This document shows positions 17,161 through 36,383 of a stretch of DNA of 64,000 bases, in pieces (within the stretch, counting starts at the first letter, position 1; each line of letters opens with the position of its first letter). The stretch is taken from contig CAPERS010000007.1 of assembly GCA_948607205.1 (NCBI GenBank), forward strand, positions 833 to 64,832. The letters run 5' to 3'. Both the position numbers and the translations under genes were made by a program. The notes below the pieces were generated by a model that saw only the letters and a program-made list of their open reading frames with translations, did no database searches and had not been told where the DNA came from. The stretch is from an uncultured Eubacteriales bacterium (GTDB taxonomy: Bacteria; Bacillota; Clostridia; Christensenellales; UBA1242).

Positions 17161-17242
17161 TGGTGCGGGCGGTGGGACTTGAACCCACACTCTTTCGAAC
17201 ACGCCCCTTAAACGTGCGCGTCTGCCATTCCGCCACGCCCGC
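17161..17242 (-). tRNA. tRNA-Leu (type II, encoded CCA); anticodon loop reads UUAAGGG, giving anticodon AAG
   Basis: Minus strand: GCGGGCG-UG-GCGGAAUGGCAGACGC-G-CACGU-UUAAGGG-GCGUG-UUCGAAAGAGU-GUGGG-UUCAAGU-CCCAC-CGCCCGC-ACCA. The acceptor, anticodon and T stems all pair, and the variable arm is 11 nt. Confidence 0.85.
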
Positions 17243-34491: not shown

Positions 34492-35643
34492 ATGATATAT
34501 TTAGATAACAGCGCGTCAACTTTTATTAAGCCAAGAGAGGTCATCAAAGCGGTTGAAGAATCTCTTCTTCACTTCTCAGCCAATCCCGGAAGAAGCGGAC
34601 ACAATGCGAGCATAAGGACTGCTATGCTTGTGGAAGAAACGCGCGAGAAAGTTGCAAAGCATTTTGGATGCAAAGACCCAAGTCATGTCATTTTCACCGT
34701 CAATTGCACTCAGGCGCTTAACACAGCAATTCTTGGACTTGCACGTTCTGGCGGTCATGTTATATGCACTGAGAACGAGCATAATTCAGTTTTAAGACCA
34801 CTTGAGCACTTAAAAACGCATGGCAAGATTGATTATTCAATTGCATTTCAAGGTGAAAAAAATTGCATTGATGAAAGTTCAATTAAAGCCTGTTTACAGC
34901 CTAACACATACATGGTTATTTGCAATCATATTTCAAATGTCAATGGTGACAAAGCAGACATCAAGTCAATCGGAGAATTTTGCAAACAGCATGGCTTGAT
35001 ATTTGTTTTAGACTGCGCACAAAGTGCTGGGCATGAGATAATCGACATGGAAGAAAATAATATTTCCATGCTTGCCATTGCTGGACACAAAGGTTTTTAT
35101 TCACCGCAAGGAATTGGTGCACTGGTTGTAAACTGTGAAAATATGCCTGAGCCATTATTATTTGGCGGAACTGGAACAAACTCACTTGAACTTTTTCAGC
35201 CTGACATTTATCCAGAGCGTCTTGAAAGTGGAACTTTGCCTACGCCTGCGATTGCCGGCCTTAATGCAGGAATAGACTTTGTTGAAAGTCATTTTGCTGA
35301 AATTCAAAATAAGATTGACGATTTGACGACCTTTGTCAACTATGAACTTCGAAAACTGGGTGTCGATGTTTACACTCAGCCTGAAAATTCTCATGGCGTA
35401 ATTGCATTCAATATTCCAAGCCTCTCATCAAACGAAGTTGCAACCATGCTCAATGAGCACTGGGAGATTTGTGTGCGTGGTGGATATCACTGCGCGCCAA
35501 TGAAGCACAAGGCGCTCGGAACGCTTGAAAGCGGTGCGGTGCGAGTTTCAATATCATATTTCAACACTTTCACAGATGTGCAGAGATTGATTGGTGCTGT
35601 TAAGACGATAATAAGGAAGAACAAAATTCAAGTGAACGAGTGA
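34492..35643 (+). CDS. class V aminotransferase (cysteine desulfurase / selenocysteine lyase-like)
   Basis: MIYLDNSAST N-terminus and PLP-lysine motif AGHKGF. Start at ATG 34492, behind AAAGGAAAG. The upstream part of track ORF 34324.. overlaps the divergent gene. Confidence 0.85.
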   Translation: MIYLDNSASTFIKPREVIKAVEESLLHFSANPGRSGHNASIRTAMLVEETREKVAKHFGCKDPSHVIFTVNCTQALNTAILGLARSGGHVICTENEHNSVLRPLEHLKTHGKIDYSIAFQGEKNCIDESSIKACLQPNTYMVICNHISNVNGDKADIKSIGEFCKQHGLIFVLDCAQSAGHEIIDMEENNISMLAIAGHKGFYSPQGIGALVVNCENMPEPLLFGGTGTNSLELFQPDIYPERLESGTLPTPAIAGLNAGIDFVESHFAEIQNKIDDLTTFVNYELRKLGVDVYTQPENSHGVIAFNIPSLSSNEVATMLNEHWEICVRGGYHCAPMKHKALGTLESGAVRVSISYFNTFTDVQRLIGAVKTIIRKNKIQVNE

Positions 35644-35657
35644 TATTCTTCTTTCAC

Positions 35658-35784
35658 GCGCTCGGGAAGCGTCATGCGCGCCAAGAAGGGCGCGCATGAC
35701 GAGTTGTTTGCGCCGGCAAAACGGCGAGCAAACAACCTTCGACCATTTTCAACTCGTGTTGAAACTGGTCGGTTTCCCGAGCGC
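35658..35784. other. GC-rich 127-nt element that folds as a four-way junction (three hairpins closed by an 11-bp stem)
   Basis: Outer stem GCGCTCGGGAA (35658-68) / TTCCCGAGCGC (35774-84). Hairpin 1 is 35671-35700 (12 bp perfect). Hairpin 2 is 35703-35736 (9 + 4 bp). Hairpin 3 is 35740-35771 (13 of 14 bp). Junction linkers are 2-3 nt. Confidence 0.5.
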
Positions 35785-35840: not shown

Positions 35841-35873
35841 AAAAAAATCGGAATAATCAAATTCCGATTTTTA
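35841..35873. terminator. bidirectional terminator
   Basis: A7, then ATCGGAAT (35847-54) / ATTCCGAT (35861-68), then T5. Confidence 0.75.
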
Positions 35874-35876
35874 TTC

Positions 35877-36383
35877 TTAATCATCTATTCCCAAAATTTT
35901 CTTGCGCATCTTGTCATATTCATCAGAAGTGATAAGCCCTTCATCACGCAATTTATCAAGTTTCAAAAGTTCATTCTTTTGCTTATCAATGTCGCTTTTT
36001 GAGAAAGTGTTTTTGATTCCATCAACCGCGTTCGTTACACCACTTTCAACAGTTTCTGAAAAACTTTGTTGATTTTTTGCAAAGTTCCCCTGCTCAATAT
36101 TTTTAATATAATTATCAACCATCATTGTCATGCAAAGAAGAATAATAAGTCCAATAATTGTTGGCGAAAGAATAATTGCAGTGAATATTCCCCAGCCCAG
36201 AATTGAACCACGATTTCTGACAAGTTCTTCATCAGTCATGCTTGACGCTTCTTTAAATTTATTGCTTCCTATGATAAGTGGAATACCGATAATTGCCCCA
36301 ACAATTGTTATGCAAGCTAATATACCAATAATGAGAGAAATAATTCTTGCTACGACAAAATAAAGTTCAACTGTTCCTTTCAT
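35877..36383 (-). CDS. membrane protein with C-terminal SHOCT domain
   Basis: Start at ATG 36383, behind AAGGAG. Two TM segments. The C-terminal LLKLDKLRDEGLITSDEYDKMRKKILG matches the SHOCT motif. Confidence 0.7.
   Translation of the reverse strand: MKGTVELYFVVARIISLIIGILACITIVGAIIGIPLIIGSNKFKEASSMTDEELVRNRGSILGWGIFTAIILSPTIIGLIILLCMTMMVDNYIKNIEQGNFAKNQQSFSETVESGVTNAVDGIKNTFSKSDIDKQKNELLKLDKLRDEGLITSDEYDKMRKKILGIDD

Follow-up and report, generated by a model that had tools for sequence, protein, structure and literature searches.

A four-way-junction palindrome downstream of a cysteine desulfurase-family gene and its structural relatives in an uncultured Eubacteriales bacterium

In a 64,000-nucleotide stretch of DNA from an uncultured Eubacteriales bacterium (hereafter the window), a GC-rich element at positions 35658-35784, just downstream of a cysteine desulfurase-family gene, can fold into a four-way junction. 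An earlier reading of the sequence alone had presented it as a singular structured RNA of a 3′ untranslated region (UTR) or an RNA gene, and had left open a DNA-level palindromic repeat. It was found that the element belongs to a family of nested palindromes. I show that this family exists, that the element is inherited at a fixed site, that its paired arms co-evolve, that the tips of its hairpins invert between strains, and that the constraint is symmetric between the two strands. Very probably it belongs to a family of palindromic repeats and is no RNA gene. On balance, I read it as one resident member of a family of DNA repeats, built as nested palindromes and restricted to this lineage, which behaves like the repetitive extragenic palindromes (REP), the bacterial interspersed mosaic elements (BIME), and the miniature inverted-repeat transposable elements (MITE). 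Since a terminal inverted repeat encloses three palindromes, either strand, as single-stranded DNA (ssDNA) or as RNA, folds into a fully paired four-way junction. The idea of a singular RNA was not supported, given about 21 structurally alike elements, no strand bias of G-U pairs, flips of the hairpin tips, and no promoter-like site on the + strand; the DNA-level repeat is now the best-fitting reading.

The element and its structural relatives

The four-way junction is present as a GC-rich, palindromic sequence of 127 nt. Its layout is GCGCTCGGGAAGC, hairpin H1, GA, hairpin H2, CTT, hairpin H3, and GTTTCCCGAGCGC, with junction linkers of 0, 2, 3, and 0 nt. The 5′ arm of the closing stem, which is the terminal inverted repeat (35658-35670), pairs with the 3′ arm (35772-35784), and a consensus of this repeat closes other members of the family as well. 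The closing stem has 13 bp, namely 11 Watson-Crick pairs, then a G·U pair formed by the T at 35773, and then a C-G pair. H1 (35671-35700) is a perfect 12-bp stem with the loop AAGAAG, H2 (35703-35736) has 9 + 4 bp with a 2-nt GA bulge, and H3 (35740-35771) has 6 + 7 bp with one T·C mismatch and the loop TCGT. The only non-Watson-Crick positions in the element are the G·U at the inner end of the closing stem, which is the sole G·U, and the T·C in H3. No strand is assigned to the element or to its parts; the whole is delimited by an identical RNA and DNA fold on both strands and by orthologues at the same site. Its G+C content is 0.59, compared with 0.357 genome-wide.

On each strand, the minimum-energy structure and the centroid structure predicted by RNAfold are both the four-way junction, so that the outer stem with three near-perfect hairpins, described before by eye with 11 bp in the outer stem, is reproduced by computation. 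The minimum free energy of the RNA is −87.7 kcal/mol for the + strand and −83.5 kcal/mol for the − strand (z = −12.2 and −12.3); no fold as stable was obtained in 200 dinucleotide shuffles. With DNA parameters the same junction was obtained (−56.6 and −56.9 kcal/mol; z = −10.6 and −12.2). The locus is identical in independently produced public assemblies; runs ERR4096669 and ERR4096668 are the source of assemblies in which this species is present.

Is this a single structure in the genome? The genome (G000, 1.09 Mb) was folded in 140-nt windows; the 35658-35784 element was one of the strongest outliers, and most of the others also consist of a closing stem around three near-perfect hairpins. 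A seed-and-fold search of the same genome (domains spanning 40-260 nt and bounded by an inverted repeat of 8 bp or more, with 72% or more of the bases paired and −0.42 kcal/mol per nt or lower) revealed 21 domains with exactly three hairpins and 7 domains with one, mostly inner hairpins of those elements. Closed domains with two or four hairpins were not found in this search, and a Markov-1 simulated genome of equal size had no three-hairpin domain.

Nineteen copies not linked to tRNA genes were examined in detail. They are 80-138 nt in length, and their GC content averages 0.51; the closing stem has 10-15 bp, the junction linkers have 0-3 nt, and the loops 3-9 nt. A loose consensus, GCGC(TC)GG(G)AAGC ... 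GCTTCC(C)GAGCGC, can be read from the closing stems. It forms the terminal inverted repeat, and variants of it are always mirrored on the opposite arm (for example, GCACTCGGGAAGC with GCTTCCCGAGTGC). The GCGC clamp and a GGAAG motif beside the junction are the most conserved sequences among the copies. The inner hairpins, in contrast to the terminal repeat, have no other copy above chance anywhere in the genome (longest match, 18 nt), and the possibility that they were borrowed from elsewhere in the genome was rejected on this ground. No loop or junction nucleotides are conserved between the copies. The shared terminal repeat was recognised both by eye and by a covariance model of the 35658-35784 element, which scores two other members of its own genome (C4:3166 and C2:66802, given as contig:position) at 60 bits.

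A second member lies in the window itself at 1569-1689 (no strand assigned), as judged from the genome fold scan and its context. It has the closing stem GCAAGGAAGC and three hairpins, begins 4 nt past the stop codon of the upstream gene, and has a DNA fold of −49.7 kcal/mol (z = −11.9). In the sister species introduced below, no junction was found at the right flank that matches this site. The sequence-only reading had seen one copy in the window; this is correct for sequence, as BLAST found one copy in the whole genome, and incorrect for structure. Since the copies have nothing in common but the shape and the loose terminal repeat, BLAST does not recognise them as copies. Its only matches among 60 relatives and the phage and plasmid collections were chance or terminal-repeat matches of 14-32 nt. 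It had also been expected that an ordinary REP or MITE would show itself by many identical copies; identical copies are absent and structural ones are many, and the family could not have been revealed by BLAST.

Two further sequences were noted near family members. A run of 11 C lies at C1:38885-38895 in the same genome, 17 nt past the member C1:38731-38867 and upstream of the next gene, and may be a length-variable tract. Within the coding sequence of the desulfurase (..KALGTLES..), 146 nt upstream of the element, the sequence GCGCTCGGAACGC at 35512-35524 agrees with the terminal repeat in 11 of its 13 positions. It was rejected as a source or pairing partner of the closing stem, as such a 13-mer is no commoner than chance (flank-matching null, P = 0.26).

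The 19 copies are mostly extragenic: about nine lie between co-directional genes, seven between convergent genes, and two between divergent genes. One copy is directly upstream of a ribosome-binding site in a 5′ UTR, and the copy at C2:133014 overlaps the predicted 3′ end of the adjoining gene by 16 nt. By the coordinates of the closing-stem core, 5 of the 19 start within 5 nt of an upstream stop codon or overlap it, and three more, including the 35658-35784 element, start 9-14 nt past one. This closeness is read as a modest enrichment. Nothing recurs in the neighbourhoods of the copies.

Orthologues and relatives in other genomes

The sister species, an uncultured Clostridia metagenome-assembled genome (MAG; L093, in G105 and also G107), is fully syntenic with the window and 83.5% identical over 6.2 kb. 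Its element is at the same site. Four further strain loci were reached via the 90% protein cluster of the desulfurase, and there are five distinct versions of the element in total, three of them strain-level variants. RNAalifold recovered the junction from these five versions. In the model-fitted alignment, 97.3% of the cells are paired and 9 of 53 pairs have changed on both sides, figures that lean towards the structure because the alignment was fitted to it. None of 500 shuffles reached either figure, and structures slid by 1-3 columns gave about 35% pairing and 0-1 double changes. Of the two outcomes that had been contrasted earlier for further copies, covariation and exact copies, covariation was found and exact copies were not.

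The changes are spread over the whole element. In the closing stem, the G·U of the window copy is a G-C in all four other orthologues, and strain L181 has a C·A opposition. In H1, the closing pair goes from C-G to T-A and the second pair from T-A to C-G. The H1 loop is AAAATG in L175, and L174 and L181 have its complement, CATTTT, so that both orientations occur. H2 of the sister species is shorter and fully paired, and four of its pairs show compensated changes. Strain L174 carries the inner 20 nt of H3 (35746-35765) in flip-flop inverted form, as an exact reverse complement. With such flips of loops and internal mismatches from strain to strain, loop sequence and polarity are not constrained. 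The element orthologues differ by a net 8 nt.

Is the inheritance at a fixed site specific to this locus? The sister genome G105 was searched with the flanks of the 18 other members. Three loci, some of them cut off by a G105 contig end beside the element, were left out of the comparison, and 16 loci were assessable. At 13 loci, the 35658-35784 locus included, a three-hairpin junction lies at the same place in both species, with an element identity of 68-98% and a flank identity of 76-97%. Stem lengths often differ between the two species, yet the stems are fully paired, and at some loci (for example, C4:26451 and C13:8390) all three hairpins differ. For two or three loci, G105 lacks a counterpart, namely C2:66805, where both flanks could be aligned, C4:3168, and possibly C7:2401. 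None of them has a clean boundary. The G105 contigs C117, C42, and C100 (loci L137, L138, and L134) end at or shortly beyond members of the family, which are orthologues of C2:71525 and C13:8390.

It was assessed whether the constraint acts on one strand. Within the junction domain, at 11 loci in the two species, there are 15 internal G-U pairs in the sense orientation and 12 in the antisense orientation (p = 0.70), and the more stable strand is the sense strand in 12 of 22 cases and the antisense strand in 10. A first, loose count had suggested an excess of sense G-U pairs (23 versus 12), which was gone in the stricter two-species count. The strand-symmetric constraint, together with the flips and the paired changes in length, points to processes on the DNA palindrome and not to selection on one transcript.

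Outside the two species, the covariance model searched against 150 congeners matched only G107, which is the same genome as G105, and weakly G112. The strict terminal-repeat pattern was found in 2 of 80 congeners. Fold scans of sampled DNA revealed 2-3 junctions per 400 kb of G074, and no junctions in about 200 kb each of G017 and G031, except for one tRNA-linked case in G031. One copy in G074 has its terminal repeat and H1 in common with C4:3168 of the present genome (84% identity over 49 nt), although the two loci are not orthologous. Across 185,579 species genomes, the terminal-repeat pattern gave 25 matches, one of which is the sister-species orthologue; the other 24 were rejected as relatives, being chance matches in GC-rich coding DNA with no junction fold. 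The family is concentrated in one small clade, with scattered relatives.

Two of the more distant loci have features of their own. In G112, the locus L185:1500-1665 holds a very GC-rich four-way junction of about 165 nt (−123 kcal/mol), whose H2 begins with GTTTTGTTTGCGCCGG and resembles H2 of the 35658-35784 element. In a relative with 78% protein identity (L044:4620-4740), three tandem direct copies of CTTCGACAGCAC(C/T)C.. stand just before a four-way junction of its own. That junction adjoins the stop codon of pnp and not that of the desulfurase gene, and its closing-stem arm has GCGAGG in place of the expected GCTCGG, leaving two unpaired positions.

Gene neighbourhood and competing explanations

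The gene upstream of the element belongs to the class V aminotransferase/cysteine desulfurase family (34492-35643, + strand; Pfam PF00266, 3.2e-78); gene calls in this study are based on open reading frames (ORFs). Its probable start is the ATG at 34492, which lies 3′ of a AAAGGAAAG ribosome-binding site, and in public assemblies it encodes 383 amino acids. The TGA stop codon is at 35641-35643, and the element begins 14 nt downstream. A bidirectional intrinsic terminator found by a terminator scan (35843-35872, no strand assigned) begins 58 nt past the end of the element and is common to the desulfurase gene and a convergent SHOCT/DUF5362 membrane-protein gene (35877-36383, − strand; from Pfam matches and start codon analysis). 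The stretch from the stop codon to the element holds no terminator. The earlier placement of the element between the stop codon and the terminator is correct. In the sister species the order is the SHOCT gene, the terminator, the element, and the desulfurase stop codon, and the terminator is kept between the SHOCT stop codon and the element. A scan for sigma-70-like promoters found no promoter-like site 5′ of the element on the + strand. In a strict scan, a terminator follows the element in the sense of the upstream gene at the 35658-35784 locus only, and one other copy has one on the opposite strand. That the element might itself be the terminator of the desulfurase gene was rejected, as only one copy (C3:84476) itself precedes a T-run.

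Only in this clade is the desulfurase gene set apart from pnp by the SHOCT/DUF5362 gene and the element. Among 29 inspected congeners (54-68% amino-acid identity), most have the two genes directly convergent with only small AT-rich hairpins between them, and none has a GC-rich element in the spacer. I take the nearness of the convergent pnp gene to the element to be a coincidence of synteny. In many congeners (loci L012-L026), the first 100 nt past the desulfurase stop codon contain small palindromes that recur throughout the genus, CTATTATG..CATAATAG and (C)ACTAGTATGCA..TGCATACTAGT(G). They resemble either a common bidirectional terminator or a family of small repeats.

The element was also compared with known RNAs. 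With Rfam 15 at a permissive E-value, no family reached a fifth of its gathering score on the element; the sub-threshold matches were Clostridiales-3 (20 bits versus 103) and BTnc060 (32 bits versus 229, mainly on the terminator). A search of 20 related loci, 16 other members among them, gave only sub-threshold chance matches and true tRNAs. ARAGORN detected no tRNA or tmRNA at the element, its only match in the window being a tRNA-Leu at 17161-17242, and the Rfam tRNA and tmRNA models were negative as well. The stems of the element have 12-13 bp, versus the 7-bp acceptor stem and 5-bp T stem of tRNAs. These results agree with the earlier reading, in which the element was judged too long and too regular for a tRNA and was not recognised as a known riboswitch or small RNA (sRNA). 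A read-through or selenocysteine-type extension of the desulfurase was considered as well, as the frame after the TGA is open for 71 codons. However, the element orthologues differ by a net 8 nt and the orthologous desulfurases of congeners end at about the same residue, and thus the element is not a coding extension or a recoding signal.

How might a lineage-restricted DNA repeat of this kind be maintained? Arm-to-arm templated correction at the DNA level, through hairpin-mediated template switching and inversion, could keep the stems perfect, and half-paired copies may be removed by selection. The family would have spread in the past via an enzyme now absent from the genome, or would have come from outside. 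The element is probably co-transcribed in the desulfurase mRNA, judging from its place between the stop codon and the terminator. A fold of −88 kcal/mol ahead of the terminator might then be a barrier to 3′-to-5′ exonucleases or to readthrough, as with REP elements. Such a barrier would be incidental, or an additional benefit, and would not make the element a dedicated RNA gene. That the junction in the desulfurase mRNA hinders decay or readthrough in this way is a tentative suggestion, less likely than not.

Several observations do not sit easily with a mobile DNA repeat. Only 1 of the 19 copies has a flanking direct repeat of at least 4 nt, versus 13% at random positions, and the 35658-35784 element, flanked by TTTCAC and AGTTAT, has no target-site duplication. 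A Y1/RAYT transposase (PF01797) was found in neither G000 nor G105; the same search matched 6 of 14 control genomes and one congener, G074. Tyrosine recombinases are encoded by two genes each in G000 and G105, and relatives without the repeats have them too; they were rejected as mobilisers because their counts do not track the repeat. Paralogues without a common hairpin sequence are odd for a transposed repeat and would call for great age or for copying without a core. In a plain sequence alignment, about 11% of stem sites and 34% of loop and linker sites differ between the species, the latter figure being inflated by loop flips and misalignment. That the number of hairpins is strictly three, and that 13 of the 16 assessable loci have been kept in a genome reduced to 1.09 Mb, argues for selection on the fold. 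Pure DNA-level correction does not account for these two points.

The last point also bears on the alternative that survives best, namely that the copies are purely selfish or neutral palindromic DNA, with stems kept only by template switching during replication and copies persisting in harmless places. This would agree with the strand-symmetric pairing, the flip-flop inversions, the paired length changes, the difference in presence between sister species at 2-3 loci, and the patchy density among congeners (21 per 1.09 Mb here versus 2-3 per 400 kb in G074). However, decayed copies with one, two, or four arms were absent from every genome examined, 13 loci have been kept across species in a strongly reduced genome, and stems change less than loops; arm-to-arm correction would also leave the absence of whole-hairpin deletions unexplained. 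I consider this account unlikely, though it deserves attention.

If, instead, the elements were selected as cis-acting structured RNAs, that is, as four-way junctions in 3′ UTRs or between cistrons whose task is to stabilise the upstream mRNA, to prevent readthrough, or to offer a site for processing or binding, the palindromy of the DNA would be a by-product. The position of the present element between stop codon and terminator, the start of at least 5 of the 19 members within 5 nt of or overlapping an upstream stop codon, the compensated changes across orthologues, and the greater conservation of stems than of loops are all consistent with this. So is the fact that the G-U pairs at this locus are on the sense strand (one in G000, two in G105, and none in antisense). 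When the 11 loci of the two species are taken together, however, neither G-U pairs nor stability favour the sense strand. Loops and mismatches are found flipped from one strain to another, the copies have no conserved loop or junction nucleotides, Rfam has no match, and the positions are heterogeneous, with most copies lacking a recognisable downstream terminator and one lying in a 5′ UTR. Selection as RNA thus seems a rather poor candidate, a little below the neutral account.

The regularity of the shape raises another possibility. The four-way-junction palindromes may be a distinct, structure-defined class, recurring in uncultured gut Clostridia and perhaps in other phyla, in which the shape itself, a closing stem with exactly three perfectly paired arms of any sequence, is selected for a junction-reading factor, and in which copies arise without a master sequence. 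Such a factor would use the folded single strand, either RNA or DNA at the fork, for example to restart, pause, or organise replication or transcription, or to process transcripts. I regard this broader proposal as improbable. A related reading, a recognition site for a protein that reads four-way junctions, where the element mimics a Holliday junction (as ssDNA at a fork, as a cruciform, or as RNA) in recombination, replication restart, chromosome organisation, or processing, is more doubtful still. Every copy and orthologue has three arms and linkers of 0-3 nt whatever its sequence, and conservation is highest in the GCGC clamp and in GGAAG by the junction, both of which speak for such a protein. 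On the other hand, no candidate protein is linked to the elements, nothing recurs in their neighbourhoods, and enzymes of the RuvC/RecU type would be expected to cleave such sites and not to maintain them.

Finally, an independent small RNA gene, a tRNA-like gene, or a selenocysteine-type read-through signal of the desulfurase, for which the cloverleaf-like fold, the 71 open codons, and an adjoining gene from a sulfur/selenium-handling family might speak, is extremely improbable in view of the negative ARAGORN and Rfam tRNA/tmRNA results, the lack of a promoter-like site upstream on the + strand, the net 8-nt difference between orthologues with no conserved frame, the common end of the congener proteins, and twenty look-alikes that follow unrelated genes.

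Comparison with known repeats and significance

The favoured reading, a lineage-restricted family of nested-palindrome DNA repeats, invites comparison with known systems. No description of four-way-junction repeats was found in the literature, and the family is in none of the RNA and repeat catalogues searched. The cuckoo RNA family (PMC4615179) was rejected as a match; it is a different thing, made of hairpins with a CCUCCUCCC loop motif.

A REP unit is an imperfect palindrome of 20-40 bp, one end of which bears an unpaired tag, GTAG or CGTC (PMC3733652), and REP, BIME, and REPIN elements are linked to a Y1 transposase gene (RAYT, TnpA-REP) (PMC3333891). Like them, the present elements are GC-rich, extragenic, multi-copy palindromes that lie mostly 3′ of genes, between co-directional or convergent ORFs (PMC3733652, PMC3333891). 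Both are plausibly transcribed and able to form larger folds, and roles in mRNA stabilisation, termination, and supercoiling have been proposed for the known elements. In contrast, a REP is a single hairpin whose copies have similar sequences, while the present unit is 80-138 nt in length and consists of a closed junction with three unrelated hairpins. A GTAG or CGTC tag lies near an end in 3 of the 19 copies, two of them due to a TAG stop codon, and the 35658-35784 element has none. The present genome is also without a RAYT gene.

The bcr1 element of the Bacillus cereus group, one of the group A bcr repeats, is about 155 bp in length, has no transposase, and is transcribed; compensatory changes keep its cruciform-like fold, and its distribution varies between strains (PMC3184786). 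The present family resembles it as a repeat of Firmicutes with no transposase, compensated changes, and variable presence. As compared by description and not by sequence, bcr1 differs in that its copies are similar, are flanked by 5-bp direct repeats, and have two independent stem-loops (PMC3184786), while in the present family direct repeats are absent, a stem closes three hairpins, and no core is common to the copies. Bacterial MITEs such as Correia/nemis, RUP, BOX, and SPRITE are likewise short and non-coding, with terminal inverted repeats, stable folds at the RNA level, and variable presence, but they have target-site duplications, a conserved core, and usually a parent insertion sequence with matching inverted repeats (PMC3184786); none of these was found here. 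As for a parent insertion sequence, the sole +/− motif pair within 5 kb, other than the two ends of one element, joins the outer ends of two neighbouring elements on contig C2, about 4.8 kb apart. Terminal inverted repeats of the MITE type are present, in the form of the closing stems of 10-15 bp with GCGC(TC)GG(G)AAGC.

The GC clusters and double-hairpin elements of fungal mitochondria are GC-rich mini-palindromes in the spacers of AT-rich, compact genomes; they encode no enzyme and are suspected to be mobile. They differ in being organellar, in having one or two hairpins, and in forming sequence families, and no four-way-junction rule is known for them. In summary, the family lies outside every described family and is best called a new member form of the small palindromic-repeat kind.

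A separate family of elements was observed next to tRNA genes outside the window. Genes for tRNA-Lys, tRNA-Ile, tRNA-Met, and tRNA-Gly are each followed by a hairpin-rich insert of 150-240 nt (G000:C2:106448-106740, L073; C5:24300-24760, L074; C8:10700-11100, L075; C8:43600-44050, L076). Each insert ends with a direct repeat of the last 17-21 nt of the tRNA, and for tRNA-Lys and tRNA-Met the sequence just past the tRNA is also repeated. The inserts share a conserved block, GGTCGGAGC..GCGAAGAAGWRTGCGTGCTCGGCCAT, whose opposite strand corresponds to the start of a short ORF, MAEHAHFF... (11-27 codons), and they have no Rfam match. This family looks like a miniature integrative element in the 3′ ends of tRNA genes.

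If the repeat reading of the 35658-35784 element is true, the element is of an ordinary kind in an unusual form, an extragenic palindromic repeat set by a strict four-way-junction shape and a loose terminal repeat. Since there is no shared core sequence, sequence-based repeat finders and BLAST miss such a family. The ends of sister-MAG contigs at family members suggest that the palindromes hinder short-read assembly and fragment contigs, and flips between strains affect assembly and strain typing. GC-rich islands of this sort in MAGs of gut Clostridia should not be annotated as novel sRNAs or riboswitches. The present case adds a series of orthologues with formal pair counts, strain-level flips, a two-species test of strand symmetry, and copies without a common core. 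The family would offer a natural system in which selection and hairpin-templated repair can be weighed as causes of perfect pairing, and in which the three-arm rule can be studied.

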